From a virus, in the IMG/VR virus record IMGVR_UViG_3300050821_006531: 61,319 nucleotides of DNA; one strand, given 5' to 3'. Numbering within the stretch: position 1 is the first letter of the stretch; every line of letters starts with the position of its first letter. The position numbers and the translations under genes were made by a program. Shown here in pieces: positions 9,393 through 52,405 of the stretch. The notes below the pieces were generated by a model. The model searched no databases and was not told the DNA's origin. It saw only the letters and a program-made list of their open reading frames with translations.

Positions 9393-9518
9393 TTAGCCTT
9401 TCTTTGCATCGCGTTGCGCCTTTCGCTTCGCGCGCTTTTTCGCGGCCTTCGCCTTGGCGGGCGGTTTGTATGCAAGCACTACGTCAGTTATCGTGTCTAA
9501 CTGCTTGGGTGTGCTCAT
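9393..9518 (-). CDS. Possible 41-aa Lys-rich ORF inside the IS
   Basis: My own reading: MSTPKQLDTITDVVLAYKPPAKAKAAKKRAKRKAQRDAKKG. It has a TGATG overlap with the upstream stop and GAGGAGG upstream, and ends inside the IS inverted repeat. Confidence 0.3.
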   Translation of the reverse strand: MSTPKQLDTITDVVLAYKPPAKAKAAKKRAKRKAQRDAKKG

Positions 9519-13504: not shown

Positions 13505-13944
13505 GACCAGAACCTCAGTATGTTGAGCCGCCTCCTGCCATTCTACTGTTCCGGGGGAAGAACAGGTTCTTGTCCAACTTTTACATTGAGCCAGACGGCA
13601 CATGCGTGGAAGTTGAGTACCAGGCTGCTAAGTGCGCAGACCCTGAAGAGGCCAGGAGGTTCTCTGGAATGCGTCCTGGAGACGCCAAGCGTTTTGGAAG
13701 ACGCGTGAAGTTACGCAAAGACTGGGAGTCAGTCAAGATCCAGGTCATGCGGGAGTTCGTGTTCCAGAAATTCAAAGAACACTTGTCGCTACGTATCCAA
13801 CTGCTCGCGACTGGAGAAGCCGAGTTAATCGAAGGTAATCATTGGGGTGACAAGTTCTGGGGTAAGACAGAGGACGGCTTTGGTGGCGGGTCCAACTACC
13901 TGGGGAGAATTTTGATGGAAGTAAGGGAGACGCTTAAAAAGTGA
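13501..13944 (+). CDS. NADAR (YbiA/DUF1768) domain protein
   Basis: ILLFRGKNRFLSNFY...VEYQAAK...AKRFGR...DWESVKIQVMREFVFQKF...LLATGEAELIEGNHWGDKFWG. The start is trimmed to the GTG next to the AGAGGTGGAG RBS. Confidence 0.8.
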   Translation: MRPEPQYVEPPPAILLFRGKNRFLSNFYIEPDGTCVEVEYQAAKCADPEEARRFSGMRPGDAKRFGRRVKLRKDWESVKIQVMREFVFQKFKEHLSLRIQLLATGEAELIEGNHWGDKFWGKTEDGFGGGSNYLGRILMEVRETLKK

Positions 13945-18358: not shown

Positions 18359-18551
18359 ACCCTGGAGCAGTCAACCGCGCGAAGTGCTCGAAGAGTGGCT
18401 CAAAGCCTGTCTGTGGGTTAAGTACTCGAAGCTGACGGACTGGGAGCGGGACTTTTGCACCTCACTTGAGGATCAACTGGAGCGCCGGGGCACGCTCACC
18501 CAGAAGCAGCAAGAGATTCTCGAACGAATTTACGCGGAGCGTACCGACTAA
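18351..18551 (+). CDS. Hypothetical 66-aa protein between the exonuclease and polymerase ORFs
   Basis: A TTG start overlaps the upstream stop. TAATG coupling to the polymerase ORF. Reads LTDWERDFCTSLEDQLERRGTLTQKQQEILERIY. Confidence 0.45.
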   Translation: MPKPWSSQPREVLEEWLKACLWVKYSKLTDWERDFCTSLEDQLERRGTLTQKQQEILERIYAERTD

Positions 18552-21007
18552 TGGCTCTGTACGCAGGCGTCGAACTTCCCGGTCACCCCGATCCTGTCAA
18601 CGTTGCAAAGCTCGACCGGCTGCCACTACGCATGATCGGCGATATGCAAAGGTTTGGCTTTAAGATTGATCCCCCGCACTTCGCCGAACTGTCGTCGCGG
18701 CTGCAAGCAAGACAGCAAGCTCTGCGCAAAGAAATCGCCAACGAAATCCCACCCAAGGCACTGGACCGGTTTGTCGAGGTGCTGGCCGCAACCGACAACG
18801 AGGACGACGACTCAGACTCAGACGCAGTCGTGGACGACTCCGGCCTGTTCAACGTCGAATCGAGCAAGCGCGTGGCTGAACTACTCTACGACACCCTGCG
18901 CCTGGACCTGACCGCTGGCGTCAAAGTCAAAAAGACCAAGGGCGGGGACCGGCTCTCGACCGGCAAGAAAACCCTGGAGCAACTCAAGCGCGCGCACCCG
19001 GTCGTGCCTCTGATTCTTGAGTACCGTGAGTGTTCAAAGCTTGACGGAACGTATGCGCGAGCGATGCCACGAAGGGCCGTGCTGCACCCCAAGGGACCGG
19101 ACTGCCCCAGGTGCGGGCGCAAGCACTGGGAAGACGAGTGGCGGGTGCACACACAACTATTGACGACTCGCACAGCCACGGGTCGCACCGCGTCGAAGAA
19201 TCCGAACCTCGGCAACATACCCGGTAGGTCCGCACTGGGCCGCGAAATTCGCGCTGGTTTTATTCCGAGTGTTGGACACGTAATCTGCCAGCGCGATTGG
19301 GCACAAATAGAATTGCGATTAATGGCTGACAGGTCCGGTGACTCAACAATGATTGAAGTCTACCAAGCAGACGGAGATATTCACGTACGTACTGCAATGG
19401 GTACGTTTGAAATCTCCGATCCAGAAAAGGTAGATAAATTATTACATAGAGCGCCATCGAAAAATACAAATTTCGCGGTCTGCATAGCCGGTGGTCAAAA
19501 AGTCCTTACTGACCGTGGATTGATTCCCATAGAACGAGTAGGATATCATGATCGTGTATGGGATGGACAAGAATTTGTTTTTCATCAAGGTGTGATCTGC
19601 CAGGGCTTCAAGGAGGTCATCGAGTATGACGGACTCACAGCAACCCCGGACCACAAAGTCTGGCTCAAGGATGGTACCGTTTCGACGCTCGAAGGGGCGC
19701 GTTCAGCCAGACGACAACTTGCTCATACCGAGGTTGGCGGCATTGCCATTAGGTTCCTTGAGACTGAACTTGGACGGAATCCACCGGCGAGGCCCACGTC
19801 GAGAAAAGTGCATCTTCGCGACATGCGTGGAATGTGGACGTACGCGAGAAGTGACGTTGAGCAATTTGTTGCTGAGAAGAACAACGAACTGTACTTGCAA
19901 GAAAACCTATCCAGATCCACGCTCCACAATGCTTTTGAAGAGATGGCAGGCCATCCTTCAGCGATGCAACAACCCAAACAACGAGTCGTACCGAAACTAT
20001 GGAGGACGTGGCATCGAGTGCAAGTTTGGCTCCGCGAAAGAGTTTCTCGACTACGTTTTAAAGAGACTCCCACATCCTTCCTACAAAAAAGTGGACATTG
20101 GCAGGAAGAACAACGACGGCCATTACGAGAAGGGCAATCTACGGCTGGAGACCCGGAGTCAGAACTTACGCAACAGGCGCTCAAATCGGTTCGTGGAGTA
20201 TCGCGGGCGTTTGGTTACGCACGCGGACTTGTACGACCTGCTGAGACGCGACTATCCAGACTTCAAGCTCAGCCTAATACGCACACGCAATTTGGCTGCT
20301 CTTGGGGTTCCGTGGCAGGAAATACTCCAAAGAACCCCACGGAAACATTGGAAAAGGAAGGCAAAAAGTACGCCTGGGTCTTCGATATTCTAAATGCAGG
20401 ACCACGTCGCCGTTTCACCGTATCGGGCCGGCTGGTTAGTAACTGCTACCTCATCACCGGAGCTGGACTGTTGGACCTGATGGCCTCGACGTTCGCGACT
20501 GCTGGCCAACCAATGCCAGACTACATGACTGAGCGCTGGTGCAACGACTTCATTGAGAAGTGGTTTGGGTTGTACCCCGGTGTGAAGAAGTATTTGTCGA
20601 GCGAGGAAGAGAAAGCTCGCAGATACGGGATTGTATGGACAGCGACGGGCAGAGTCCGGCGCATCCCAGAAGCGCGAAGCTGCCACCCTTGGATACAAGA
20701 CGCCGGAGTGCGCCAGGGTTGTAATCACGGTATACAGGGCTATTCGGCGGATCTCATGAAGTTGGCAATGGGAGAATTGGACGAGAGATTAGCGAGCTTG
20801 CGCGAGTACGGAGTACAGTCATTTTGTTTGATGTCAATTTATGATGAATTACTGGTGGAAGCTCCCGAGGATGATGCTTTGACAGTCTCGGCCTGCATGG
20901 AGACTGTTATGGATAATGTTCTATTGGACCGCCAAACAGGCAGTCTTCTCTGCAAGGTTCCAATAAAGTCAGACGGGAGTATTCTTACCAGATGGAACAA
21001 GAACTAG
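18551..21007 (+). CDS. Family-A DNA polymerase, polymerase domain, containing an intein
   Basis: Motif A DWAQIELRLMA. Motif B RAPSKNTNFAV | intein | CYLITGAGL. Motif C MSIYDELLVEAP. Also NHGIQGYSADLMK. Confidence 0.85.
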   Translation: MALYAGVELPGHPDPVNVAKLDRLPLRMIGDMQRFGFKIDPPHFAELSSRLQARQQALRKEIANEIPPKALDRFVEVLAATDNEDDDSDSDAVVDDSGLFNVESSKRVAELLYDTLRLDLTAGVKVKKTKGGDRLSTGKKTLEQLKRAHPVVPLILEYRECSKLDGTYARAMPRRAVLHPKGPDCPRCGRKHWEDEWRVHTQLLTTRTATGRTASKNPNLGNIPGRSALGREIRAGFIPSVGHVICQRDWAQIELRLMADRSGDSTMIEVYQADGDIHVRTAMGTFEISDPEKVDKLLHRAPSKNTNFAVCIAGGQKVLTDRGLIPIERVGYHDRVWDGQEFVFHQGVICQGFKEVIEYDGLTATPDHKVWLKDGTVSTLEGARSARRQLAHTEVGGIAIRFLETELGRNPPARPTSRKVHLRDMRGMWTYARSDVEQFVAEKNNELYLQENLSRSTLHNAFEEMAGHPSAMQQPKQRVVPKLWRTWHRVQVWLRERVSRLRFKETPTSFLQKSGHWQEEQRRPLREGQSTAGDPESELTQQALKSVRGVSRAFGYARGLVRPAETRLSRLQAQPNTHTQFGCSWGSVAGNTPKNPTETLEKEGKKYAWVFDILNAGPRRRFTVSGRLVSNCYLITGAGLLDLMASTFATAGQPMPDYMTERWCNDFIEKWFGLYPGVKKYLSSEEEKARRYGIVWTATGRVRRIPEARSCHPWIQDAGVRQGCNHGIQGYSADLMKLAMGELDERLASLREYGVQSFCLMSIYDELLVEAPEDDALTVSACMETVMDNVLLDRQTGSLLCKVPIKSDGSILTRWNKN
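19481..20443 (+). mobile_element. Intein (321 codons) inserted in PolA motif B
   Basis: Cys1 in CIAGGQKVLTDRGLIPIERV; block B LTATPDHKVWL; blocks F/G VFDILNAGPRRRFTVSGRLVSN followed by the +1 Cys (tgc at 20444). Confidence 0.8.
19626..20393 (+). CDS. +1-frame ORF nested in the intein: homing-endonuclease-associated DNA-binding-like protein
   Basis: 255 codons are open in the +1 frame. Reads CVECGRTREVTLSNLLLRRTTNCTC...RWQAILQRCNNPNNESYRNYGGRGIECKF...DIGRKNNDGHYEKGNLRLETRSQNLRNRR. The true start is uncertain. Confidence 0.6.
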   Translation: MTDSQQPRTTKSGSRMVPFRRSKGRVQPDDNLLIPRLAALPLGSLRLNLDGIHRRGPRREKCIFATCVECGRTREVTLSNLLLRRTTNCTCKKTYPDPRSTMLLKRWQAILQRCNNPNNESYRNYGGRGIECKFGSAKEFLDYVLKRLPHPSYKKVDIGRKNNDGHYEKGNLRLETRSQNLRNRRSNRFVEYRGRLVTHADLYDLLRRDYPDFKLSLIRTRNLAALGVPWQEILQRTPRKHWKRKAKSTPGSSIF

Positions 21008-21537
21008 AACGCTGGCTACCTATACAAGATTGGCCAGACTATGAGGTCTCCAATTTGGGGCGGATCAAAAGCCACCACAACCGGAGCTACAAGAATCACA
21101 TTTTGCGCCCGGTGTTCACGACCAGAAACGGTTATATGAAAGTCACACTTTGTTATAACAGGATTCGCCGTGACGTTCTTGTGCATCGAATAGTGGCGAC
21201 GGCTTTCCTTCGGCCGCCTAAAGCCGGTGAAGAAGCCAATCACAAAAACCTTGATAAGGTGGATAACCGAGCAATCAATCTGGAATGGGTGACTCGCGCG
21301 GAGAATGCTTAACACGCCATGGCGTGGGGTCGTAAGTTCATCCCTTCCTTGCGCTGTCCAGAATGTATGGCTCGTGGAGAATCCAGCGGTCAAAGTAAGT
21401 TGAAGAATCGCCAAGTCCTAAAAATTAGAGAACTGGTGAAAACCGGCATTTCCATGAGCGAAGTGGCACGTAGGTTTTCAGTCAGCCCTCACACCATAAC
21501 TCGCATACGAGACAGAAAAAGTTGGAGACATATTTGA
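20992..21537 (+). pseudogene. HNH (NUMOD4 + HNH_3-type) homing endonuclease with an in-frame TAA
   Basis: WLPIQDWPDYEVSNLGRIKS...VHRIVATAFL...ANHKNLDKVDNRAINLEWVTRAENA, then TAA (21310-21312), then HAMAWGRK...SKLKNRQVLKIRELVKTGISMSEVARRFSVSPHTITRIRDRKSWRHI in the same frame. Confidence 0.75.
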
Positions 21538-21930: not shown

Positions 21931-21955
21931 GGGGGATTGACCCCTCCCCGTTTAC

Positions 21956-21971
21956 CGGTTAAACTTGACAC
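21956..21971 (+). promoter_or_regulatory. GGTTAAACT box abutting the start of the HTH gene (possible leaderless transcript)
   Basis: ccggttaaacttgaca: TAAACT at 21960-21965, ATG at 21972. Confidence 0.4.
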
Positions 21972-22184
21972 ATGAACGACTCAAACGACCCACACCGCCT
22001 CCGGGTCCGCGCCTGGGTACTCGCCAACCACGGCGTGTTCAGTCGCTTGAGCCGTGAACTGGGTGTGTCGGTCGCATTTGTGCAGCGCATTGCCTACGGG
22101 TTGCAGGACTATGGCTCAAAGGACCAGCGGGTCGAACGCAGACTCAGAGCGCTCGGGTGTCCGCTCAAACAAAAAGTCGCGTAG
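21972..22184 (+). CDS. Small HTH DNA-binding protein (candidate regulator)
   Basis: FSRLSRELGVSVAFVQRIAYG is an HTH-like segment. A 70-aa stand-alone gene between two promoter boxes. Confidence 0.55.
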   Translation: MNDSNDPHRLRVRAWVLANHGVFSRLSRELGVSVAFVQRIAYGLQDYGSKDQRVERRLRALGCPLKQKVA

Positions 22185-22197
22185 AACAACTCTTCGC

Positions 22198-22227
22198 TTG
22201 ACTCCAGTCATGTTTCTAGGTTAAACT
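22198..22227 (+). promoter_or_regulatory. Sigma70-like promoter containing the TAGGTTAAACT box
   Basis: TTGACT (22198-22203), 18-nt spacer, TAAACT (22222-22227), embedded in tgtttctaggttaaact. Confidence 0.5.
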
Positions 22228-22438: not shown

Positions 22439-22620
22439 GCTTGGGCGACCCACCTGTTGTCACACCTGTTGAAGAAGCGCCGCTCAAGTTGGGCGTGATG
22501 CTGATTTCTATGGCGGCGGTTGCTACCAGCATGTGGAGGCTGTCTTGGGCTGAGCGGCTGGTTGTGTTGTTCACCGGTCGAGTGTACTTGCAGCAGTTAG
22601 TCAGCCCGATCAAACAATGA
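22435..22620 (+). CDS. Hypothetical small protein with one hydrophobic segment
   Basis: A 61-aa ORF with GTGA/ATGA coupling. Contains LGVMLISMAAVATSMW. Confidence 0.4.
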   Translation: MSLGDPPVVTPVEEAPLKLGVMLISMAAVATSMWRLSWAERLVVLFTGRVYLQQLVSPIKQ

Positions 22621-23795
22621 AGCTCACGTACAAGCCCCTCGCCAATCCGCTCCTGATCCTGTCAGACTCACCGTCCCTGCTCTCCGGGCTCTCCCGCGCC
22701 GGTCGCGACATTGCTTCGCTCGCGGCTACGCTCCCACAATTTCGTGTTGGTTACCTGGGTCGAGGCGGTTTCAACCAGCGCAAGTTCCCCTGGCACCAGG
22801 TAGACTTTCCAGAGTCCGCGCAGTGGGGCGAGGGCTACCTTGAACGCGTCTGGAACGATTTCTCGGGCGGCGAACCCGGCGTGATACTGAGCAACTGGGA
22901 CCTCAGCCGACTACTGTGGTTCACGCACCCGCAAGGCACCGGCCTCGAAGCCTTCGCCGGTCCCAACCGGAACTTCCAGAAGTGGGTTTACAGCCCCGTG
23001 GACAGCACTGGCCCCAACGGACAAACGCTCAGTGTGGCCAGCCAAGCCTGCCTGCACGGGTTCGACCGTGCCTGCGTCGCCAGTGAGTTCGGATGCCAAG
23101 TCATGCGAGCGAGTGGCCGCACGGACGCGGACTGGTTGCCGCATGGGCTCTGGTTGGACAAGTTCCACCCATACGCCAACGCGAAGGCGTTGCTGGGTGG
23201 GGACGAGAACGGTGTCTACGTCGGGGCGAACATGACCAACCAGGCCAGGAAAGACATGCCCGCAGCCTTCGAGTGTGCAGCCGCTCTCCGGCAAGAGTAC
23301 GGCAGTAAGTTCAAGTTCTGGCTGCACACCGACGTGCTGGTGCGGTACTGGAACGTGTACGCGCTCGCGGCGGACTACGGAGTGCAGGACTGCCTCGAAG
23401 TCACAACCGAGTTGACGGACGAACAGCTCGCGGTCAGGTACTCGGCCTGTGACTGCACCGTGAACCCAACCGCTGGCGAAGGGTTTTCGTACGTGACAGC
23501 GGAGTCGCAGGCGTGCGGGACAGCCTGCGTGGTCACGGACTACGCGGCGGGCGCGGAGCTGGTCGAGGAAGACTGCCGGGTGCTGCCAGTCGCAATGCGC
23601 GTAGACACGCAGCACAATGTGTTGCGGGCTGTGCTGAGCGGGTATGGGTTTGCGGCAAAGGTCAAGGAGCAGGTGGAGCGTAAGCGCGGGGACTGGGAGT
23701 ACAGGAGTGAGCAGTTAGCAGACAGAGTTTCGTATTTGGGATGGGAAAAGTTGAAGCACCCGTGGACGAAGTGGTTGCTGGAGGGGTTGAAGTGA
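22617..23795 (+). CDS. GT-B fold glycosyltransferase (GT4-like)
   Basis: NPTAGEGFSYVTAESQACGTACVVTDYAAGAELVEE resembles the E-x7-E region of group-1 glycosyltransferases. Confidence 0.6.
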   Translation: MKLTYKPLANPLLILSDSPSLLSGLSRAGRDIASLAATLPQFRVGYLGRGGFNQRKFPWHQVDFPESAQWGEGYLERVWNDFSGGEPGVILSNWDLSRLLWFTHPQGTGLEAFAGPNRNFQKWVYSPVDSTGPNGQTLSVASQACLHGFDRACVASEFGCQVMRASGRTDADWLPHGLWLDKFHPYANAKALLGGDENGVYVGANMTNQARKDMPAAFECAAALRQEYGSKFKFWLHTDVLVRYWNVYALAADYGVQDCLEVTTELTDEQLAVRYSACDCTVNPTAGEGFSYVTAESQACGTACVVTDYAAGAELVEEDCRVLPVAMRVDTQHNVLRAVLSGYGFAAKVKEQVERKRGDWEYRSEQLADRVSYLGWEKLKHPWTKWLLEGLK

Positions 23796-24502
23796 CAGAG
23801 ACCAAACTGGACATTCAGGCATTCATTGTCGCTGCGGACAATTATACAGGTCCGAGTGTTGTTCCGTACCCGGTTCGAATTCGGAATAATCCAAACAATG
23901 AAGTCTCACCCTGTGCTGTCTACCAGAGAATCCTACAAGAAGAAACGTGTGACATTCTGGTATACCTACACTCAGACCTCACCATCCACGATCCAACTTG
24001 GATGACTCGGCTCGAAGCCATCTTCACCAACCCCAACTGCGTCGTGGCCGGCCTCGGTGGCGCGACCGCCCTGGGCCACCCCGACATCTACCGCAAGCCC
24101 TATGAACTCCAACAACTCGCTCGCTACGGCTACGCAAGTAACCAGTCCGACTGGCAAGTCCACGGCTCGCACGAAGCCGGTATCAAACGAGTCGCCGTAC
24201 TGGACGCTTTCCTGCTGGCCGTACGCAGGGACTGGTTGCTGGACGTAGGAGGCTGGCCCACCGAACACTTGACCTTTCACTGCCTCGACACATGGCTCGC
24301 GTGTGAAGCCGCGCGCCAGGGCAAGGAGACTTGGATGGTCGGGGTGCCGTGTCACCACGCAGGTGGAGGCACGAGCGTGACAGAGTCGTATGCAAAGGCC
24401 AAGTGGTTACAGGGCAACTCGGTTGAAGAGGATCACCGCCGTCCGCACGCCTTTCTGTACCACGAGTATCGAGACGTGCTGCCTCTGAGGGTACCTGAAT
24501 GA
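23792..24502 (+). CDS. GT-A-like glycosyltransferase family protein
   Basis: ILVYLHSDLTIHDPTW...VVAGLGGA...VAVLDAFLLAVRRDW...FHCLDTWLACEA...CHHAGGG follows the pattern of stand-alone GT2-like enzymes. Confidence 0.5.
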   Translation: MTETKLDIQAFIVAADNYTGPSVVPYPVRIRNNPNNEVSPCAVYQRILQEETCDILVYLHSDLTIHDPTWMTRLEAIFTNPNCVVAGLGGATALGHPDIYRKPYELQQLARYGYASNQSDWQVHGSHEAGIKRVAVLDAFLLAVRRDWLLDVGGWPTEHLTFHCLDTWLACEAARQGKETWMVGVPCHHAGGGTSVTESYAKAKWLQGNSVEEDHRRPHAFLYHEYRDVLPLRVPE

Positions 24503-25212
24503 CCAACATCGTTTTGACCGTGCGCGGGCGTTACCGCCTAACCGAGCAAGCTTTTCGAAGTTTGCTCGATCACACATCCCCCGACCAGTTCAATCTGACA
24601 ATTGTTCATGACGCGTCAGGAGACCTCAACTTTAAAGTTGGCCGACTCGTCGAAGCAGCCGCTGGGTGGCCAAATATAACCGCACTCTCGGTACTGAACT
24701 CCAACCACAAGCTCTCGTCGCTCAAACGCCTGGGTATCGAGTGGTCCTGCGCGCGCTTCGGCAGCGACGGCTGGCTCTGCACCGTAGACAGTGACGTGTA
24801 CTTTGGCAACGACTGGCTCTCCACAATGGTCACGGCAGCCGAGCTGACGCGCGGCCTGGGCTTTAAGCTGTGGGGCGGACAACAGCACCCCTACCACCAC
24901 GCGATTGCTGTAGTCGGTGGCACACAGACGCCAGAGACATATTTGGAGGAGTACGAGGCACTCCCCGGCACTCACTGGTTCATGCCTTGGTCTACTTGGT
25001 GGGAGTTCGGGAACTCGTTTGTGTCGAGCGCGCCAGGCGTGTGCCAGGGCGAAGACGTGAGCTTCTGCCAAGCAATTCGTAACCACGACGGGAGAATCGG
25101 CGTGGTCAAGCCGTTCTGCGTGGCCGACTGCGGGCTCACCAACACAGAGGGAAAGCCGCAGCCGGGGGCGGAGCTGAGAACGGAGCGTTGGCTGGGAGTG
25201 TTGTATGAGTAG
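24499..25212 (+). CDS. GT2-like glycosyltransferase
   Basis: IVLTVRGRYRLTEQAFRSLLDHTSPDQFNLTIVHDASGD plus VDSDV (DxD). Confidence 0.5.
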   Translation: MTNIVLTVRGRYRLTEQAFRSLLDHTSPDQFNLTIVHDASGDLNFKVGRLVEAAAGWPNITALSVLNSNHKLSSLKRLGIEWSCARFGSDGWLCTVDSDVYFGNDWLSTMVTAAELTRGLGFKLWGGQQHPYHHAIAVVGGTQTPETYLEEYEALPGTHWFMPWSTWWEFGNSFVSSAPGVCQGEDVSFCQAIRNHDGRIGVVKPFCVADCGLTNTEGKPQPGAELRTERWLGVLYE

Positions 25213-25894
25213 CGAATCGTTGTTGGTTTTTACTTGCGAATATACGGGTGGGGGCAACGACCCCAACTCCGCACTGCTCAGAGAATCGTGCGAACGAGTG
25301 GGCATTAAGCTGGGCTCGTACGGGCACGGTGAGCCCTGGCCTGGGTTCATGGGCAGGATCAAAGGTGCGGCTGAGTACTTGCGCGGGCGGACGGAGGAAC
25401 GAGTATTGTTTCTGGACTCGTCGGACACGTTCGTGTTGGACCCAGCCAGCAAACTAAGCGCATGGTTTGGGACTCGGATTCTGTTGGGTGGTGCGACTAT
25501 AATCGCAGGGGAGAAAAACTGCTACCCCGAGCCATCTCTGGCTCCGAAGTTCCGCTACACGAGAGGCCCCTACAAGTACCCCAATGGAGGCTGCTGGGGC
25601 GGCTGGCGGAAGTGGGTTCTTGAAGACCTGGACTTACTTGTTGAAGGTCAGACTCGTGATGACGACCAGTACGAGTGGTCGATTCTGCTCCCGCCACGCG
25701 CGGTAGACAACAAATGTGAGTTGTTCCAAACCATGTACGGCTTCCGCGACGGCGACATTGACTGGAACACTTTCCGAAACACTCTTACAGGCACGTACCC
25801 GTCCGTGTTTCACTTCAATGGTCGTGCACCAGGCCGGGAAGAGACTTACAGAAAAGCTCTGGAGGTAGGCCGTGTCAAACCCTTACAACCTTGA
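25205..25894 (+). CDS. Hypothetical protein, possible glycosyltransferase
   Basis: VLFLDSSDTFVL is DxD-like. The call rests mainly on context. Confidence 0.35.
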   Translation: MSSESLLVFTCEYTGGGNDPNSALLRESCERVGIKLGSYGHGEPWPGFMGRIKGAAEYLRGRTEERVLFLDSSDTFVLDPASKLSAWFGTRILLGGATIIAGEKNCYPEPSLAPKFRYTRGPYKYPNGGCWGGWRKWVLEDLDLLVEGQTRDDDQYEWSILLPPRAVDNKCELFQTMYGFRDGDIDWNTFRNTLTGTYPSVFHFNGRAPGREETYRKALEVGRVKPLQP

Positions 25895-26477
25895 CGAGTT
25901 CTACACAGCCGAGTTCTTCGCCGCCAACCAAGCGGAAGGTCTGAAACACGCGGAGTGGTTTGTCCCGCTGCTCAAGCGTTTGTTCGACCCAAAGTGGATG
26001 ATTGATGTTGGTTGTGGGACCGGACACTTTGTGCTGAAGGCACACTTCTTGGGCATTAACTGTGTTGGTGTAGATGGGGCGCATGAGGCCCTGGAGAAAA
26101 GCGTATCGATGGGGCTGGTGCGGCACGACCTGCGGATACCGCTCCGGCCAGCGATACGCTACGACCTGGCCCTGTGCATCGAAGTTGCTGAGCACCTGGA
26201 GCCTGAGTACGCGGACACACTGGTAGAGACGTTGTGCAACTGCTCGGACATGGTGGTGATGACAGCGGCGACTCCAGGCCAGGGTGGCCTGCAACACGTC
26301 AACGAGCAACCGCTTGATTACTGGTCTGATAAGTTCGCATTTCGGGGCTATGTGCTTACTGTATGGCGAACCCGATTACTTCGAAATGGAGTATTGGAAG
26401 CGGCCCAGAGTGATCACCACGTAGCCCCTTGGTTCCACAAAGTAGTATGTTTTGAGAGGAGCACTCCCAGTGTCTGA
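25872..26477 (+). CDS. Class I SAM-dependent methyltransferase
   Basis: Motif I MIDVGCGTGHFV; later DLALCIEVAEHLE. Confidence 0.75.
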   Translation: MSNPYNLDEFYTAEFFAANQAEGLKHAEWFVPLLKRLFDPKWMIDVGCGTGHFVLKAHFLGINCVGVDGAHEALEKSVSMGLVRHDLRIPLRPAIRYDLALCIEVAEHLEPEYADTLVETLCNCSDMVVMTAATPGQGGLQHVNEQPLDYWSDKFAFRGYVLTVWRTRLLRNGVLEAAQSDHHVAPWFHKVVCFERSTPSV

Positions 26478-27363
26478 GCGGCTAGACCTGCTCCGTCCCG
26501 CGCTTGACCGGTTCAAGCGACCGTTCACTGTGTTCGACTTCGGAGCGGGCATTCACGCCTGCGTCGGTCTTGAAATTGCTACCGCGTACGAGAACGCGAT
26601 TGTTGTCCTGGCCGAGAAAGACGCGCGCAACGTGTACGCGCCGCGCACGATGCATTTGCGGAAAGAACTGACGTGTGAGGACCTGGAAGGACTGAGCCGG
26701 TCTGAGGACTTCGATGTGGCACTTGCACTGAATATCTTACATTGGCTCAAGGACAACTGGGTGCGAGCGCTTGGAGCTTTGTTCGATTACGGCTCACTGT
26801 TTGTTCAGATACCCGGCCCTGATGATCTAAAAACCTGCAACGTGGAATACGCTCAGGAAATTTACTACTGGTGTAGCAAAACTTCCCGCTGCCTAGGTGA
26901 CACCGCTCAATTCGAGGGTCATCTGAAACGCCCACTTTACGAGATTTCGAAACAAGAACCTGGTAGTCAGTATTCAGTCATGCTCAATGCCAAGTCCGCA
27001 AAAGCAAAACCCCACGAAGTTCGATGCGTGGTCACAACCGGGCACGACCACAAAGACATCGCTCTGCTACACAAGCGCGGCCCGGTCTGGAACACTCAGC
27101 CATTCGTGCATGGCCTCACGCTCCAGAACTTCTGCGAACTCGGCGGCGTCTACCCAACTCGTGACACAGTGCTAAAACTCCTGCGAGACATGCCGGTGCC
27201 AAACCCACCGCACCGTGACATTCAGCCGTGGAATATTCGGTTTAACGGAACAGCAATGCACTTGATCGACCCTGGGGAGCCTGACTGGGTGAACTCGGAC
27301 GCGGCGAACATGCGGCATGTGGTTGAGTGGGTGGACGCGGAAATGAGGCGGTGGGAAAAGTGA
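26470..27363 (+). CDS. Putative methyltransferase-fold protein
   Basis: FTVFDFGAGIHACVG (motif I-like) and DVALALNILHWL. GTG start with overlap. Confidence 0.4.
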   Translation: MSERLDLLRPALDRFKRPFTVFDFGAGIHACVGLEIATAYENAIVVLAEKDARNVYAPRTMHLRKELTCEDLEGLSRSEDFDVALALNILHWLKDNWVRALGALFDYGSLFVQIPGPDDLKTCNVEYAQEIYYWCSKTSRCLGDTAQFEGHLKRPLYEISKQEPGSQYSVMLNAKSAKAKPHEVRCVVTTGHDHKDIALLHKRGPVWNTQPFVHGLTLQNFCELGGVYPTRDTVLKLLRDMPVPNPPHRDIQPWNIRFNGTAMHLIDPGEPDWVNSDAANMRHVVEWVDAEMRRWEK

Positions 27364-27866
27364 CCTGCATCAATATCAATCTCGGTTCTGGTCAAAGACC
27401 ATTTAAGAACTGGGTTAATGTTGACTTGAACCCGAAGTGGTCGCCAGACGTGGTGGCCGAGGGTGCAAACTACTTGTACCAACTGGAATCTGATTCAGTA
27501 GACAAGATCACGCTTCACCATGTTCTTGAACATTACGGTTGTGGTGAGGCAGCCAGACTGCTCGCTCAGTGCTACCGAACACTCAAGCCACTCGGCTCAC
27601 TGTTCGTGTTTGTACCGGACATGCGTGAGCTTGCTCAGATGTGGTTCGAGGGACGACTAGATGATGCCACCTACCTGATTAACGTGTACGGGGCCTACAT
27701 GCAGGACGAGGCTGACCGGCACAAGTTCGGGTTCACCAGACGCTCCTTGTTCAACGAGCTCCAGGGGCACGGCTTCAGAGTACGAATGTTCGACTGGAGG
27801 GAAGTTGAGGGGGCCGACTTCGCGCGAGCGCGTTGGGTGCTGGCAGTGGAGGCAATCAAGCCATGA
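27360..27866 (+). CDS. SAM-dependent methyltransferase (type 11-like)
   Basis: ININLGSGQRPFKNWVNVDL...DKITLHHVLEHYG...LKPLGSLFVFVPD. Confidence 0.7.
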   Translation: MTCININLGSGQRPFKNWVNVDLNPKWSPDVVAEGANYLYQLESDSVDKITLHHVLEHYGCGEAARLLAQCYRTLKPLGSLFVFVPDMRELAQMWFEGRLDDATYLINVYGAYMQDEADRHKFGFTRRSLFNELQGHGFRVRMFDWREVEGADFARARWVLAVEAIKP

Positions 27867-28576
27867 ACGAAAAAGGTCTAGTAATCATAATCGCTTTCAA
27901 CAACGCCCACCTGACCAAACACGCAGTCCGCACAGCACTCTCACAAGACATGCCGGTTGACGTGCTAGTGGTGAACAACCACTCACTCGACGGCACCGCC
28001 GACTGGCTCAAGACCAAGCAAGTCGCGACCGTCACGTTCAGCAGCCAGATCAGTCTAGCAGCCTGTTGGAACCGCGCTCTAAAGCTTGCCTGGATAGTTG
28101 GCTTTGAGCACGCGCTGGTGCTCAATAACGACGTGGAAGTCCGCCCGGACACTTACAGGCTGCTGCTCGCGCACGGCGGCCCGTTTGTGACTTGCGTGAG
28201 CGTGGATGACCCAGCAAGGCTTGGCGCTGCCGGTGACCGTACGATTGAAGAGTTGAGGCCCAAGGCGCGCGAGCACCCGGACTACAGCGCCTTCCTGATT
28301 CGGAAACAGGTGATGGAGAAGGTGGGCTGGTTTAACGAAGCATACCTAGGGGGCTACGGTGAGGACGCGGAGTTTCACGTGAGGTGTCACCGCAAGGGAG
28401 TCAAGTCGGTGTGCATTGACGTGCCGTTTCTGCACCACGGAGCAGCCACTGTGAAGAGCGCCAGTCCTGGTGAGGCTGCGAGGATTCGGCGCAACGCAGA
28501 CACGAACCGTGAAAGGTTCAAGCGGGAGTACGGAGCGGAGATCGGGTCGAAAGAGTATTACGAATTGTTCGAGTAG
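27863..28576 (+). CDS. GT2 family glycosyltransferase
   Basis: LVIIIAFNNAHLTKHAVRTALSQDMPVDVLVVNNHSLDGTADWL...ALVLNNDVEV. Confidence 0.7.
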   Translation: MNEKGLVIIIAFNNAHLTKHAVRTALSQDMPVDVLVVNNHSLDGTADWLKTKQVATVTFSSQISLAACWNRALKLAWIVGFEHALVLNNDVEVRPDTYRLLLAHGGPFVTCVSVDDPARLGAAGDRTIEELRPKAREHPDYSAFLIRKQVMEKVGWFNEAYLGGYGEDAEFHVRCHRKGVKSVCIDVPFLHHGAATVKSASPGEAARIRRNADTNRERFKREYGAEIGSKEYYELFE

Positions 28577-28584
28577 TTAGACTT

Positions 28585-28674
28585 GGGTGTCAGGCAGATA
28601 CGGTTAGCTGCGTTGGTCTGTAAAACCAATGGCCCTAGATGGTCTTGCGAGTTCGAATCTCGTGGCACCCACCA
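28585..28674 (+). tRNA. tRNA-Tyr (anticodon GTA), class II with a long variable arm; CCA encoded
   Basis: Hand-folded. Acceptor gggtgtc/ggcaccc; D stem gcag/ctgc; anticodon stem ttggt/accaa with loop ctGTAaa; 17-nt variable arm; T arm gcgag-ttcgaat-ctcgt. Confidence 0.9.
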
Positions 28675-28909
28675 CCACCAAAGATGCGATATTTACTTTA
28701 CCGACTGGAGTCCTGGTGTGTAAGGCACCGCTGGAAGCGGGCAGCCGCACTCTTCTTGAACACTGCGACTTGGCTGCTGTTTCGGAGTATCGGTCCAATC
28801 TACTCTTGCCCGGAACCTGCTTGCGTGTCGCGTGTTGTCAGCTCACGTGCGTGGTGACTAGCCGCTTTGGAGAATAGACCGGAGCATGTGTTTAGGCACA
28901 CTCGAACAC

Positions 28910-29161
28910 ATGAAAACTCTACTCTTCTTTCTTCTAATCGGTGTTTCAGTGCGAGCGGTCTCCCCGACACAAGCAGTCTCCAACCAACCCTACTGTCAGC
29001 GCTTTGTCCACGTGCTCAACAATGAAGGCACAATTGGCGTGCCTTTCGGGTTGCTGGCCTTGGATACTAAAACGGGACAACTGTGCCGCACGTACGATAT
29101 CGCGAACGGTCTCACAACCTGGAACGGAATTGTGGACTGCTACTCGCTCTCACTCCGGTAG
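28910..29161 (+). CDS. Small secreted Cys-containing protein
   Basis: Signal-peptide-like MKTLLFFLLIGVSVRAVSP. It converges on the late operon. Confidence 0.45.
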   Translation: MKTLLFFLLIGVSVRAVSPTQAVSNQPYCQRFVHVLNNEGTIGVPFGLLALDTKTGQLCRTYDIANGLTTWNGIVDCYSLSLR

Positions 29162-32312: not shown

Positions 32313-32609
32313 TCAATCAATCTTAGGCGGGACTTTGTCTTTGGGAAAGTTCCCACCCAAGAAGTTACCCCCTAGTATGTTCCCGCCCAGGAAGTTTCCC
32401 CCTAAGAAATTACCGTCCCGGAAATCTCCTTCCAGAAAGTTCCCTCCTCGGAAATTACCACCTCGGAACTGACCTCGGAAATCACCATCCAAGAAGTCTC
32501 CATCCCAAAAATGAATATGACCACCCACACTAAAAGTTATGTTCTCATTGCTCACGGTAGCGTTTTTCAGCCACTCGGGAACATTCTTCAACTGTGAAAC
32601 ACGTGGCAT
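32313..32609 (-). CDS. Pentapeptide-repeat protein (second copy type)
   Basis: DGDFLDGDFRGQFRGGNFRGGNFLEGDFRDGNFLGGNFLGGNILGGNFLGGNF. Confidence 0.75.
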   Translation of the reverse strand: MPRVSQLKNVPEWLKNATVSNENITFSVGGHIHFWDGDFLDGDFRGQFRGGNFRGGNFLEGDFRDGNFLGGNFLGGNILGGNFLGGNFPKDKVPPKID

Positions 32610-33809: not shown

Positions 33810-35450
33810 TCAGGCATGGAGCCAGACAGCCGTGAGTGTTCCGGTTTCAGCGGACCCTGTTGTGTAGGTAAACCCACCGCCTGACCCCGATTTGGCCTGG
33901 AGCTTAACTATATCGTTGACTGCCGCTGCGTAAACCCATGTTTGAGAGGTTGCGTAGAGCGCACTCCCGCTGCCGTTTGCCGAAACCGGCGGAGCAAACG
34001 GACTTTGAGGTGTTCCAGCCGCCACTAATTGCATGAACGCACCGCCATTGGTCGCGAGCAAACCAAAAGACTCACAACCGGTAATAACCCAGGTCCCGGC
34101 CCTGGACAGGGTCAAGGTCAACCCTGGAATGTCCTGGTAGGACGTTGTAAGAACTAATTGCGAGGACTCGACAGCAGACTGAACAATCGGTGTCAGTACG
34201 GCATTCCGCGTAATTGCCAGCACGTCCCAGTTGGTGCCTGTAAGTGGAGCCTGAAGAATACAACCCTCGCCGGGAGCGAACGAGAAAGCCGAACTGCCGT
34301 CGATGGTTTGGGCAGCCGCCGCGTTCAGGGTCAGAACACTGGTGGAAAGTGCCGAGTTCTTGACCGCGAAGACTTGGCCCGGAACCGTGGTTACGTCAGG
34401 TAGCGTGAAGGTCTCGACACCTGAGTTGTTGCTCTCGTAGGTGAAGTTGGCTGCTGTAATGCTGACTGAGCCGGCACTTGTTGCAAAGTTCAGAACAAGA
34501 ATGCCGGGGAGGTGCGCCCAAGCGCTCCCAGTCCAGTACAGAATCCCAAGCGTGTCACTAGCAACAAACAAAAATCCGGCGTCGGCGGTCCCGAGCGTGG
34601 GCAAGCTGGAGAACGCGGCAATCATGACCCCGGTCAGGTACACCCAGGTGGGTGTGGCTGTGATTAGCTTGTTTATGTAGGTGACTGTCCGGTCGGTTTC
34701 GTAGAACAACGTGCCAATTGGGTAGTTTGCGGGAGCATAGTTGCTGAGACGGTTGGCGTGTGTGTCTTCGAGCACGGGTAGGAGTTCACGTACCCAGGCC
34801 GAGCCGGTCCAGCGCCAGAGCGTGACCGGGGTGTCCGTAGCCAGGAACAAAAACCCGGCGTCGTGAGTGCCGAGGTCGGCAGGCTTGCTGGCTACCGCTG
34901 CCTGCATCACACCCCCGGCGTAGATCCAGTTGGTGCCGTTCGACTCGTAGAGGATTTGCCGGTCGCTCTCGAAGAACAACGTGAGCTTGTAGGACGCAGC
35001 CGCGTAGTTCGCGACTCGGTTGGCGTGTGTGTCTACCTGGATACCACCAAGTTCAGGCCCGGACCACTGGTAGTAAGGCTTGGCGGCGTAGCGGTACAAT
35101 GACCCAGGCTTGTTCGCGTTGGGCGTGAACAGGATCGCCAGGCCGTCCTGCGCGTAGGGCGCTCCCTGAGTTGGGTTGTTGGACGGAATAGTTGGCAGAG
35201 CGGGCAGAAACGCAAACTGTGGAGCGCCGGTCAGGTCGGTTACGTTGGGGTTGTAGAGGTTAGTGATTGCTGCCTGAAGTGCTGTGACCTGCTGCTGAAG
35301 TGTAGCAATCTCCGAGTTGATTGTTGTTAGGTTGGGTGGGGTAGTCTGGTTCGACTCGACCTTGTCATAGAGGTCGCTGATCGCGGCGGCGTTCGCCGAG
35401 CCATCAGGCAGCGTGACGGGCAGCCGCGAGAATGGGTTTACGGAAGCCAC
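33810..35450 (-). CDS. Tail fibre protein
   Basis: N-terminal coiled segment NSEIATLQQQVTALQAAITNL. An internal ~88-aa duplication (THANRVANY.../THANRLSNY...). A beta-rich C-terminus. Confidence 0.65.
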   Translation of the reverse strand: MASVNPFSRLPVTLPDGSANAAAISDLYDKVESNQTTPPNLTTINSEIATLQQQVTALQAAITNLYNPNVTDLTGAPQFAFLPALPTIPSNNPTQGAPYAQDGLAILFTPNANKPGSLYRYAAKPYYQWSGPELGGIQVDTHANRVANYAAASYKLTLFFESDRQILYESNGTNWIYAGGVMQAAVASKPADLGTHDAGFLFLATDTPVTLWRWTGSAWVRELLPVLEDTHANRLSNYAPANYPIGTLFYETDRTVTYINKLITATPTWVYLTGVMIAAFSSLPTLGTADAGFLFVASDTLGILYWTGSAWAHLPGILVLNFATSAGSVSITAANFTYESNNSGVETFTLPDVTTVPGQVFAVKNSALSTSVLTLNAAAAQTIDGSSAFSFAPGEGCILQAPLTGTNWDVLAITRNAVLTPIVQSAVESSQLVLTTSYQDIPGLTLTLSRAGTWVITGCESFGLLATNGGAFMQLVAAGTPQSPFAPPVSANGSGSALYATSQTWVYAAAVNDIVKLQAKSGSGGGFTYTTGSAETGTLTAVWLHA

Positions 35451-35816
35451 TTACTGCAAGTAGTTGTACGTGATTGAGTCGCCGCTAACCGTGCAGGCAA
35501 AGTAGATGTTTGTGGCCTGGTAGGGGAACGTGTTGGCGACCGGCAGGAAGGCATAGTTGCCACCAGCCAGAATGAAATTGCCCGTAGAGGTGGTCACGGC
35601 AGACCCGCCGAAGTACACCCGGCCTGTGTTGGCAAGTGGAGCCTGGAACGAAATCCACATGTAGGCAGCAGCAGTCGAGGACAGTTGTTTGGCTCCACTT
35701 GACGGGCAGGTCGCCGAACCCTGACCGATGTTGCCCGCGTGCGCAAGACTTTGCCGGGCCGGAGCAGCCGAAAACACAAGCAGCAAAACAAGGAGTAAGA
35801 GTCGAAAACGTTGCAT
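35451..35816 (-). CDS. Small protein with a signal peptide
   Basis: The start is trimmed to MQRFRLLLLVLLLVFSAAPARQSLA. Confidence 0.5.
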   Translation of the reverse strand: MQRFRLLLLVLLLVFSAAPARQSLAHAGNIGQGSATCPSSGAKQLSSTAAAYMWISFQAPLANTGRVYFGGSAVTTSTGNFILAGGNYAFLPVANTFPYQATNIYFACTVSGDSITYNYLQ

Positions 35817-44604: not shown

Positions 44605-45189
44605 CTACTGGATGAACCCGAGCTGAACGTCTACCGGGGCCTGGGAACTGGTGATTGTCGAAGAGGCAAAAACACCAACAGGTTGGGACACAGGCGCGGT
44701 ATTGACACCTGTGGTGTAGACCACACGCGAGGTGTTCGCAGTCGTGTCAGCAGTTGCGACCGCGCCGATCAGGGCGGAGTTGGCCGCTACATTGATCTGG
44801 CCTTGAATCAGCAAGTCGCACATATAGAGCACGGGCTGACCGGTTGAATCATTGGTGCCGGGCGCGGTGGATACAGCGACAGTGAAAATTCCGGCTACGC
44901 GATTGATTGCGCCGGATGGGCCAACGTCGCACATGCGCTTGTCGTTCGTGACTGTGGCAGTTGCCTGGTTCTTCCAGAATGCGAGCTGGCCGGCAGCAAC
45001 AGCACCAACAGGAGTTGAGGCAGTCGCGCCAGAGTCGAGTTGCACGCGAAGATACGCGGAGCCGGTGTTCTGGTCATTGAAGGCACAGCCGAGTTCTCCC
45101 GGAGCGTAGTAGGGTGACTTCGCGTTTGTTGCCGTGGGCACGCCGTTGGGCATGTACGGTGTGGAAATTCTTGGGTAGACTTGAGCCAT
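44605..45189 (-). CDS. Putative capsid accessory/decoration protein
   Basis: 194 aa directly downstream of the capsid gene, with a Thr/Ser/Ala-rich C-terminus. Confidence 0.5.
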   Translation of the reverse strand: MAQVYPRISTPYMPNGVPTATNAKSPYYAPGELGCAFNDQNTGSAYLRVQLDSGATASTPVGAVAAGQLAFWKNQATATVTNDKRMCDVGPSGAINRVAGIFTVAVSTAPGTNDSTGQPVLYMCDLLIQGQINVAANSALIGAVATADTTANTSRVVYTTGVNTAPVSQPVGVFASSTITSSQAPVDVQLGFIQ

Positions 45190-52387: not shown

Positions 52388-52405
52388 GTGGTACTCGCCT
52401 TGGAC

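Follow-up and report, generated by a model that had tools for sequence, protein, structure and literature searches.

An eight-gene glycosyltransferase and methyltransferase island in an uncultivated phage, predicted to build a methylated glycan in the cytoplasm

An uncultivated 61-kb soil-type phage (IMGVR_UViG_3300050821_006531; the whole 61,319-nt stretch analyzed is called the window) carries eight overlap-coupled genes on the + strand, at positions 22617-28576, whose enzyme families, coupling and solubility predict that soluble enzymes assemble a methylated glycan in the cytoplasm. Glycosylation of the phage's own virion is the best-supported reading of this island, and we hold it tentatively. 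The island had been described in an earlier note, from the letters of the sequence, as glycosyltransferases and methyltransferases lacking membrane parts; that observation as a whole was confirmed in gene structure, enzyme families and lack of membrane components.

Gene calling done independently on this contig reproduced all eight starts given in the earlier note (Table 1), with overlaps of 4-23 nt at 7/7 junctions. The island covers 5960 of the 61319 bases (9.7%, matching the previous estimate of about a tenth of the genome), and its GC content is 0.578, versus 0.579 for the genome. It ends, as had been noted, at a tRNA-Tyr gene, which begins after a gap of 8 nt. The weakest point of the earlier observation is the promoter box assigned to the island: sigma-70-like matches were not commoner than in shuffled sequence (3 found versus 1.7 expected), a twin with an identical -10 element lies at 21937-21965, and two small called ORFs intervene between the match and g1. 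The 70-aa ORF upstream is a possible regulator; relative L094, which lacks the island, also has a homologue of it at its junction.

Table 1. Coordinates of the island genes and associated features in the window
Feature	Position	Strand	Basis or remark
70-aa ORF	21972..22184	+	Homologues adjoin g1 in relatives L062, L063, L082, L087, L089
Sigma-70-like promoter match, TTGACT-18-TAAACT	22198..22227	+	9/12 positions match
g1, GT-B fold GT4-type glycosyltransferase, core gene	22617..23795	+	Pfam Glyco_trans_1_4 8e-11, Glycos_transf_1 4.5e-9
g2, GT-A glycosyltransferase, PF13712 family, core gene	23792..24502	+	Pfam Glyco_tranf_2_5 8.4e-12
g3, GT2-like GT-A glycosyltransferase, core gene	24499..25212	+	Sub-threshold Pfam GT2 match, 0.03
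g4, PLOD/R699-like GT-A glycosyltransferase, variable gene	25205..25894	+	Pfam GT_PLOD PF25342 3.3e-9, above cut-off
g5, class I SAM methyltransferase, variable gene	25872..26477	+	Pfam Methyltransf_23 3.4e-8
g6, short WbdD-like methyltransferase + kinase-like protein, variable gene	26470..27363	+	Profile A1 vs PDB; AlphaFold2/Foldseek
g7, class I SAM methyltransferase, core gene	27360..27866	+	Pfam Methyltransf_11 4e-6, above cut-off
g8, GT2 glycosyltransferase, core gene	27863..28576	+	Pfam Glycos_transf_2 1e-5, above cut-off
tRNA-Tyr (GTA)	28585-28674	+	ARAGORN; end of + strand block
194-aa capsid decoration (cement)-like protein, candidate acceptor	44605..45189	-	Directly after major capsid gene; AlphaFold2 pLDDT 80; 322 homologues

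Profile searches, the check that the earlier note had proposed, identified one GT-B/GT4 transferase, four GT-A transferases (PF13712, GT2-like, PLOD/R699-like and GT2), two class I methyltransferases and, as the eighth enzyme, a WbdD homologue of the O-antigen-capping type. The Pfam matches back both enzyme families and the individual calls for g1, g2, g8 and the two clear methyltransferases, g5 and g7; g3, itself below threshold, is supported through its orthologue in L006 (2e-73), which matches PF00535. g1 also matches phrog_2170 (5e-17) and, weakly, the PDB entries for Tll1590, chlorovirus B736L and MshA-type enzymes. For g2, 207 homologues were found, the best 120 of which share 50-62% identity and lie, every one, on contigs of ≤96 kb. 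The suggestion that g4 might be a fourth GT-A enzyme was borne out by its GT_PLOD match and by similarity to the mimivirus collagen glucosyltransferase R699 (PDB 9dyt; 8e-11).

Pfam gave only a weak methyltransferase match for g6. In a PDB search with profile A1, WbdD took the first four places (E 3e-5), aligning colinearly across both domains, and AlphaFold2/Foldseek placed g6 in the class I methyltransferase fold. The earlier label of methyltransferase-like holds, and a WbdD-like kinase motif (H-x-D-x-x-P-W-N...L-I-D, invariant) makes the identity more specific than had been claimed: by profile and motif, g6 is a short homologue of WbdD, which is new relative to the earlier note. WbdD, a methyltransferase and kinase, ends chain growth of the polymannose O-antigen of E. 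coli O9a by capping it (PMC3482155). The two proteins share the order methyltransferase then kinase and an unusual catalytic-loop signature, H-x-D-x-x-P-W-N followed by L-I-D-x-G, in which the Trp stacks on the G-rich loop of WbdD (PMC3482155) and is retained in g6; each also acts alongside GT4 transferases. However, g6 has 297 aa against 708 aa in WbdD, and about 135 aa follow its methyltransferase domain, compared with a WbdD kinase domain of about 250 aa. Kinase activity of g6 is uncertain, because the kinase part is shortened, the presumed N-lobe (residues 162-215) is poorly modelled at pLDDT <50, the coiled-coil ruler and a Wzm/Wzt partner are missing, and the setting is a phage. In IMG/VR, g6 has homologues in 31 viral loci, and a GT4, MT11 or GT9 domain is fused to some of them. 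Such fusions include MT(+kinase)+GT4 in L033, g6+g7 in L018 and, in L034, a single 1471-aa protein combining GT4, FkbM methyltransferase, g6-like, MT11 and GT9 parts; these natural fusions suggest that the parts of the island share one pathway.

The same polymerase/tail junction holds the island in about 17 related ~60-kb phage contigs. Among island-bearing relatives the core consists of g1, g2, g3, g7 and g8, and g4-g6 vary: g1 was present wherever the fetched sequence extends to its position, g8 in all and g7 in nearly all, g4 went undetected in several, and g5 was found in L006 only. The island is reduced in one distant relative, L091, and absent from another, L094; its absence there makes it dispensable for building this virion type and counts against the virion reading. 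Island proteins are 36-61% identical between relatives, versus 42-59% for the adaptor and tail proteins. Given the shared junction, the tail-like divergence and the genome-like GC content, the island is a long-standing resident of this genome. In this lineage it lies with the replication block, outside the structural operon, which counts against a virion target.

Elsewhere, homologous glycosyltransferase and methyltransferase cassettes lie inside the head/tail operons of many unrelated phages, which points to the virion as the target. Of 27 unrelated IMG/VR loci, at least 16 place the g6 homologue ≤7 kb from identified structural genes (head-tail adaptor, tail terminator, major tail protein, head protease, portal, major head protein), often adjoined by glycosyltransferase or methyltransferase genes. 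A similar neighborhood has also been reported for some DNA-glycosylation clusters (Pyle preprint), an observation that counts against the virion reading. The isolated phages S-CBS4 (Synechococcus) and phiPsal1 (Pontimonas) resemble the window in that a homologue of g1 (GT4) is accompanied by another glycosyltransferase and by a SAM methyltransferase. Their cassettes have three genes and adjoin the portal gene (S-CBS4) or lie between the major capsid and neck genes (phiPsal1), whereas the island has eight genes at a replication/tail junction; to our knowledge, neither cassette has been characterized.

We infer the glycan structure and its benefit to the phage as follows. Host nucleotide sugars and SAM would feed the enzymes; the GT4 and the four GT-A transferases would build an oligosaccharide or short polysaccharide, which the two small-substrate methyltransferases would O-methylate, and g6, where present, would methylate the non-reducing end, possibly after phosphorylation. 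Judging from the context of homologues and from mycobacteriophage precedent, the glycan is probably attached to a protein on the surface of the virion during assembly, with the decoration protein or the tail/fibre proteins as candidates. Progeny particles would be released already coated with methylated glycan, which may mask or stabilize them or tune adsorption. Coating its own particle with glycan is a known phage strategy, of which the island is most likely a larger version. The earlier note had proposed a methylated oligosaccharide on a cytoplasmic target; its enzymology stood, strengthened by the WbdD-like capping enzyme and the fusions, and for the virion target the backing is purely contextual.

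That note had also named the Ser/Thr-rich C terminus of the decoration protein among its candidate acceptors. The protein is a sensible candidate, since it is surface-exposed and gpD/SHP-like, its best Foldseek matches being phage capsid decoration proteins, but its conserved Thr/Ser-rich C-terminal segment is a confidently folded beta region, unlike the disordered tails that hold the C-terminal acceptor sites reported for mycobacteriophages. This folding counts against the virion reading, as does the C terminus of the major capsid protein, which is conserved and not Ser/Thr-rich.

In cluster O mycobacteriophages, the capsid and tail tube are modified by an O-methyltransferase and three tandem glycosyltransferases (PMC11600133, citing Freeman 2023). 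Like the island, the cassettes of Corndog/cluster O and Che8 (gp107-110) comprise phage-encoded soluble tandem glycosyltransferases and a methyltransferase without export machinery, and the glycan they make ends up on capsid and tail proteins, whose assembly is cytoplasmic (PMC11600133; PMC12363180). The island differs in being twice as large, with five glycosyltransferases and three methyltransferase-fold proteins, and in adding the WbdD-like capping enzyme and the PLOD/R699-like transferase; its proteins have no BLAST-level similarity to the mycobacteriophage enzymes, a point against the virion reading. The virion also differs, being podovirus-like (SU10-type adaptor match), with no tail tube gene recognized in the window and no free Ser/Thr-rich C-terminal tail on the capsid protein.

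Alternatively, the enzymes could extend, methylate and prematurely cap a host undecaprenyl-linked polysaccharide at the cytoplasmic face, using the host's initiating transferase and exporter; the changed cell surface would bring superinfection exclusion or serotype conversion. We consider this rather unlikely, but the most probable of the alternatives. As the earlier note had stated, membrane and export components are lacking: no 19-residue window in any of the eight island proteins reached a Kyte-Doolittle value of ≥1.6, which indicates no transmembrane segments, the sole protein in the genome with at least two such hydrophobic segments is a 69-aa holin-like ORF, and precomputed Pfam matches for the whole contig included no flippase, polymerase, ABC transporter, acyl carrier or sugar-nucleotide enzyme. 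The argument that this excludes the host envelope was overstated. ABC-transporter-dependent O-antigen synthesis, the WbdD system, uses solely soluble or peripheral enzymes (GT4 transferases) at the cytoplasmic face, so a lack of membrane proteins is expected there too and a host glycan stays in play. The closest characterized relative of g6, moreover, modifies lipid-linked O-antigen rather than protein (PMC3482155), which counts against a virion target.

Several further features fit envelope remodelling: the phage encodes an integrase, the island looks like cargo (at an operon end by a tRNA, absent from L094 and reduced in L091), its accessory enzymes differ among relatives as in O-antigen loci, and the g6 homologue of L030/L032 shares its cluster with sugar-nucleotide enzymes and families of LPS type (GT25, WavE). 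Known lysogenic conversion modules, however, are small and membrane-linked, unlike the island. Also missing are an initiating phosphoglycosyl transferase, Wzm/Wzt and a carbohydrate-binding export component, and g6 lacks the ruler and about half of the WbdD kinase domain (PMC3482155). Long vertical conservation, with divergence equal to that of tail genes, argues against this explanation, as do the cassettes within late operons, since altering the envelope of a cell near lysis would be of little use.

It is improbable that the product is instead a methylated oligosaccharide left free, a glycolipid or a glycosylated host protein, serving for example in counter-defence or cell reprogramming. Nothing in the sequence fixes the acceptor, and other phages have, beside a g6 homologue, GT4 enzymes that match the Pfam family "GT4 in conflict systems"; g1, however, had no match to that family at E values up to 0.1, there is no lipid or carrier-protein gene, and the recurrent placement among head/tail genes would be left unexplained.

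Sugars placed and elaborated on phage DNA bases, blocking restriction enzymes and other nucleases, are the least probable product: phage GT-A/GT-B enzymes, soluble, sometimes two or three in a row and sometimes near structural genes, can place mono- to trisaccharides on 5hmC (Pyle preprint), the island follows the DNA polymerase genes, and g6 homologues lie downstream of nucleotide-metabolism genes in L009 and, in the distant locus L015, are flanked by a glycosyltransferase weakly resembling TAGT and by a ThyX-ACP fusion, but that glycosyltransferase is unrelated to the window's enzymes, the island methyltransferases are of the small-molecule type rather than DNA methyltransferases, and with five transferases and added methyl groups the product would exceed in bulk every glycan reported on DNA. 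Known clusters (T4 alpha/beta-GT; 5mYOX/ThyS-associated GTs, Pyle et al.) further differ in glycosyltransferase families and in having partner enzymes that create 5hmC/5hmU; precomputed Pfam matches for the whole window included no thymidylate-synthase-like hydroxymethylase, C5 DNA methyltransferase or TET/JBP dioxygenase, and the island glycosyltransferases had no match to TAGT or T4 alpha/beta-glucosyltransferase families at E values up to 0.1. The earlier ranking of DNA as a less likely target, in a window with no enzyme making 5-hydroxymethyl-pyrimidines, was justified.

Virion glycosylation also has parallels among chloroviruses and mimivirus, in which cytoplasmic glycosyltransferases and sugar methyltransferases (PBCV-1 A064R, GT-GT-MT; mimivirus R699/L230) provide capsid or fibril proteins with methylated glycans (PMC9614988). 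The island belongs to a bacterial virus and the similarity is at the family level alone; in an unsystematic look, no collagen-like acceptor of the mimivirus kind was noticed among the window's translated proteins. Shared features are virus-encoded cytoplasmic enzymes of both kinds, the homology of g4 to R699, the weak match of g1 to B736L, and the multi-domain GT/MT fusions in phage loci related to the island.

The eight genes of the island, g1 to g8, run between the polymerase genes and tRNA-Tyr. Independent gene calls reproduced all eight starts proposed in the earlier note, and adjacent genes overlap by 4 to 23 nt at each of the seven junctions. Profile searches of the Pfam type confirmed the glycosyltransferase (GT) and methyltransferase (MT) families that had been read from the sequence alone, including g4, previously listed as a possible fourth GT-A enzyme; it scores 36.7 bits against PF25342 (cut-off, 27), and its match in the PDB is mimivirus R699, of the collagen glucosyltransferase family (PMC9546862). 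No collagen-like repeat was noticed on reading the translated structural proteins by eye, and the hydroxylase family is absent from the Pfam record. A search of the island with NCBIfam gave only matches far below threshold, and the enzymes therefore cannot be named more specifically. PDB sequence searches returned nothing beyond generic methyltransferases for g5 and no matches for g2, g6 (as a single sequence), or g7.

The described lack of membrane components also holds. None of the island proteins contains a hydrophobic segment; genome-wide, two such segments occur in a single protein, a 69-aa holin-like ORF, and no protein anywhere in the window has three or more. The Pfam record shows no flippase, glycan polymerase, acyl carrier, or sugar-nucleotide enzyme for any gene, as the note had stated, and the precomputed record for the whole contig contains no ABC exporter. 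The island does end at tRNA-Tyr, which follows g8 by 8 nt, and its share of the genome, put at about 10%, is 9.7%; its GC content equals that of the genome. The promoter box attributed to it, on the other hand, is a mere consensus match, found no more often than expected by chance. We conclude that the island is a real, conserved, soluble pathway that builds and methylates a glycan.

Coordinates of the island genes and of other features discussed in the text
Feature	Position	Strand	Assignment	Match
g1	22617-23795	+	GT-B / GT4	Glyco_trans_1_4, 8e-11
g2	23792-24502	+	GT-A, PF13712	8.4e-12
g3	24499-25212	+	GT2-like	own match 0.03; orthologue in viral contig L006 matches PF00535
g4	25205-25894	+	PLOD-type GT-A	3.3e-9; mimivirus R699, 8e-11
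g5	25872-26477	+	class I methyltransferase	Methyltransf_23, 3.4e-8
g6	26470-27363	+	WbdD-like MT + kinase	profile vs PDB
g7	27360-27866	+	class I methyltransferase	Methyltransf_11, 4e-6
g8	27863-28576	+	GT2	1e-5
IS1595-family transposase and PAPS-reductase-like gene	9518-11193	-
NADAR-domain protein	~13500-13944	+
PolA	18551-21007	+
HNH/NUMOD4 gene	20992-21312
ORF with signal-peptide-like N-terminus	28886-29161	+
98-aa ORF	32313-32609	-
ORF with signal-peptide-like N-terminus	35451-35816	-
114-aa membrane protein	42218-42562	-
194-aa decoration protein	44605-45189	-
418-aa and 299-aa ORFs	51018-53662	-
HNH_3 endonuclease gene	51914-52387
ORF region with signal-peptide-like N-terminus	56335-58718	-

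The g6 product had been called methyltransferase-like. In an AlphaFold2 model (mean pLDDT, 70), its first 160 residues indeed form a class I methyltransferase fold, with Foldseek matches to methyltransferases. Profile comparison further identifies it as a homologue of WbdD, the methyltransferase and kinase that caps the E. coli O9a O-antigen, a relationship that the note had missed. Searched as a full-length profile against the PDB, g6 ranks the four WbdD entries first (E 3e-5), and its two domains align colinearly: the methyltransferase domain with WbdD residues 48-225, and the catalytic loop of the kinase, with its Mg-binding motif (H-x-D-x-x-P-W-N ... D-F-G type), with residues 350-386. The Trp that stacks on the G-rich loop of WbdD falls within this aligned motif (PMC3482155). 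Six g6 homologues have in common a SAM-binding region at the N-terminus and the motif H-x-D-x-x-P-W-N ... L-I-D, which is invariant, and the C-terminal 135 residues, used as a profile, matched the hinge, catalytic-loop, and DFG regions of protein kinases weakly but consistently. When the whole model was submitted to Foldseek, matches to the methyltransferase domain prevailed and the kinase part went unseen; the profile search revealed it.

WbdD phosphorylates and then methylates the nonreducing end of the polymannose O9a O-antigen, which terminates the chain, and its partners are soluble GT4 mannosyltransferases (PMC3482155). Whereas its kinase domain comprises about 250 aa, with a G-rich loop and an N-lobe, g6 has only about 135 aa after the methyltransferase domain, approximately half as many, and the presumed N-lobe is poorly modeled (pLDDT below 50 for residues 162-215). 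The g6 protein ends at residue 297, without the C-terminal coiled-coil ruler of WbdD; moreover, WbdD is partnered by the Wzm/Wzt exporter, whereas the Pfam record and a hydrophobic-segment scan gave no ABC transporter in the window. Because the kinase domain is half-sized and its N-lobe poorly modeled, we regard methyltransfer by g6 as likely and kinase activity as possible. To our knowledge, WbdD-type chemistry is so far known from lipopolysaccharide synthesis only, and a phage family of WbdD-like capping enzymes has not been described before.

Members of the g6 family were found in 31 IMG/VR loci, 27 of them outside the lineage of the window. In at least 16 of these 27, the homologue lies no more than 7 kb from identified structural genes. 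Its usual place is between the head-tail adaptor and tail terminator genes or immediately behind the gene for the portal or the major head protein, and GT or methyltransferase genes often adjoin it. Among isolated phages, only S-CBS4 and phiPsal1 carry a g1 homologue. The gene order is portal, hypothetical, GT, galactosyltransferase, and SAM methyltransferase in S-CBS4, with the protease and head protein further on, and capsid, GT, methyltransferase, GT2, neck, and tail in phiPsal1. The contexts of homologues elsewhere thus point to the virion as the target. There are exceptions: the g6 homologue adjoins nucleotide-metabolism genes in one viral contig (L009) and lies inside a large sugar-nucleotide and LPS-type cluster in L030/L032, and in L015 (7964-11646) it is flanked by a ThyX-ACP fusion and a weak TAGT-like (TET-associated) glycosyltransferase, which may represent a DNA-modification use of the WbdD-like family. 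The parts of the island also appear to act together, judging from the fusion of the same domains elsewhere in viral contigs: MT(+kinase)-GT4 in L033, g6-g7 in L018, g6-MT11-GT9 in L037, and, in L034, GT4, an FkbM methyltransferase, a g6-like methyltransferase, MT11, and GT9 within a single 1471-aa protein. A fused GT/MT architecture is known from chlorovirus A064R (PMC9614988).

Relatives of the window were found using a conserved 215-aa tail-region protein as the anchor. Such alignment-based anchors succeeded where scanning IMG/VR with one protein at a time (g1, PolA, or the 1151-aa tail protein) had confirmed no relatives, owing to exact peptide patterns that were too specific. In about 17 related contigs, of roughly 44-66 kb, the island occupies the identical junction between PolA and the tail genes; g1, g2, g3, g7, and g8 are nearly constant, and g4, g5, and g6 vary. 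In contig L072 (10699-15872), the island has three further genes, for a B12-binding radical SAM enzyme, an FkbM methyltransferase, and a protein of Rv2179c-like exonuclease fold; tailoring enzymes are swapped between relatives. Identity between relatives is 36-61% for the island proteins, 42-59% for the adaptor and tail proteins, and 81-88% for the capsid protein, a pattern that fits what would be a long residence of the island rather than its recent capture. Recent horizontal acquisition was ruled out, since GC content and divergence match those of the remaining genome.

At the same junction, a more distant relative, L094 (Ga0134125_10003095), has only a NADAR gene and small ORFs and no island, and L091 (Ga0193753_10000386) contains an integrase plus a single weak GT2-like gene, which marks the island as accessory. 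Both contigs are fragments without capsid regions; with complete genomes, they could serve as natural knock-outs. The NADAR gene of L094 (14037-14489) sits exactly where the island would be; the window has a NADAR-domain protein of its own within the replication block. Homologues of g2 (n = 207) and of the decoration protein, a candidate glycan acceptor (n = 322), were found in metagenomes, and the island-bearing lineage is abundant.

The 194-aa decoration-like protein is encoded immediately after the capsid gene. The best structural matches of its model (pLDDT, 80) are all capsid decoration or cement proteins, at weak E values of 0.01-0.04: the phi29 gp8.5 base, T1, Adjutor, HFTV1, Pam3, and lambda gpD/SHP. 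The earlier note had proposed the Ser/Thr-rich C-terminus of this protein as a candidate acceptor. A disordered tail was ruled out, as the segment is folded in the model; the Thr/Ser/Asn-rich C-terminal stretch, conserved across the lineage, lies in confident beta strands and is predicted to be surface material. In cassettes of the mycobacteriophage type, the acceptor is a C-terminal extension of capsid or tail tube subunits; the major capsid protein of the window (45230-46339) has a conserved C-terminus that is not rich in Ser/Thr. Of all tails in the genome, the richest in Thr (VTTTTAITAQGSKPPVITTTTSE) belongs to a 114-aa membrane protein of the lysis region and exceeds in this respect the segment considered in the note.

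The most likely product of the island is a glycan coat on the virion, a reading that we favor tentatively and at slightly short of an even chance. Mycobacteriophage-type cassettes combine tandem soluble glycosyltransferases with an O-methyltransferase in the phage genome, and this arrangement is present in the window; compared with the Che8, Corndog, and Myrna enzymes, g1, g2, g4, and g8 gave no mycobacteriophage match (tblastn, E ≤ 1e-3, 50,697 phage records). The island is a known phage strategy in a larger, differently composed version, plus a new phage family of WbdD-like proteins. We know of phage-encoded virion glycosylation in a few mycobacteriophages only and, outside bacteria, in giant viruses. 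In those viruses, it alters antibody recognition.

Remodeling of a host polysaccharide is unlikely, though plausible, because the synthetic side of the WbdD system is itself free of membrane proteins. However, the initiating transferase and the exporter are absent, and the late-operon context in other phages is a misfit; in addition, lysogenic-conversion O-antigen modules (GtrABC, O-acetylases, Wzy-type) employ a multipass flippase, a bactoprenol GT, and a polymerase, none of which the window has. Hypermodification of phage DNA, which requires a source of hydroxymethyl-pyrimidine (Pyle preprint), is very improbable, as no island GT falls in the TAGT or T4 alpha/beta-GT families (Pfam, E ≤ 0.1) and the contig-wide Pfam record, in which many ORFs have no match, shows neither a ThyS-like hydroxymethylase nor a C5-MT with TET/5mYOX.

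Together with the more than 200 g2 homologues and the 322 of the decoration protein, the island suggests that virion glycosylation is widespread, and takes a more elaborate form, among abundant soil-type phages that remain uncultivated. If the virion is the target, the island is relevant to phage stability, adsorption, immune or defense evasion, and therapeutic phage engineering. A bolder form of the virion reading, which we consider rather doubtful, is that many uncultivated phages end-cap glycans polymerized directly on their own decoration or tail proteins by WbdD-type chemistry. Virions would in that case bear a small "capsule" of controlled length that ends in methyl or methyl-phosphate, and swaps of accessory enzymes among relatives (g4 to g6, radical SAM, FkbM) would diversify the glycan. 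A host polysaccharide target would imply a new, membrane-free route to surface conversion. Whichever the target, the enzymes provide compact and soluble tools for tailoring glycans.

The window, about 61 kb long, is a phage genome that assembled as a complete circle, and three assemblies contain the identical contig. Its ends share an exact 37-nt overlap (1-60 versus 61260-61319) inside a 15-bp tandem repeat, which belongs to a pentapeptide-repeat gene adjoining the integrase; the circular assembly was cut inside that gene. The plus strand up to 28.6 kb carries the integrase and a replication block (helicase, VapE-like protein, ERCC4 nuclease, UDG-exonuclease protein, and PolA), and the minus strand from 29 to 59 kb carries the structural and lysis block, with tail proteins at 33810-35450 and 35842-39297. 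No DNA-level match to the island was found among the 50,697 phage records (megablast). The nearest isolates, Tunturiibacter (Acidobacteriota) phages, are very distant, their portal and capsid proteins being 22-23% identical to those of the window; searches with four island proteins (g1, g2, g4, and g8) gave no match to them, and the first 50 kb of a Tunturiibacter phage contain no annotated GT. A scan of GTDB species genomes with the capsid alignment found no prophage that would indicate the host.

Several further features were observed. PolA is interrupted at roughly residues 333-629 by an insertion, about 290 aa long, beginning C-IAGGQKVLT and finishing LVSN|C, which looks like an intein because it is missing from PolA of the relatives L018 and L094; an HNH/NUMOD4 gene follows PolA. 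Upstream of the portal gene, an HNH_3 endonuclease gene lies between the 418-aa and 299-aa ORFs, possibly the two halves of a split large terminase; no Pfam match is on record for either. The IS1595-family transposase and PAPS-reductase-like gene, antisense within the plus-strand early block, look like an insertion sequence with cargo inside the phage genome. One ORF of the tail region, 98 aa long, is made up mostly of GGNF/GDF pentapeptide-like repeats. Finally, signal-peptide-like N-termini occur in several ORFs, among them one of 91 aa that directly follows the tRNA and one for a 677-aa protein located where the structural block ends. Instead of being virion components, these ORFs may be morons, secreted or of the lipoprotein kind.
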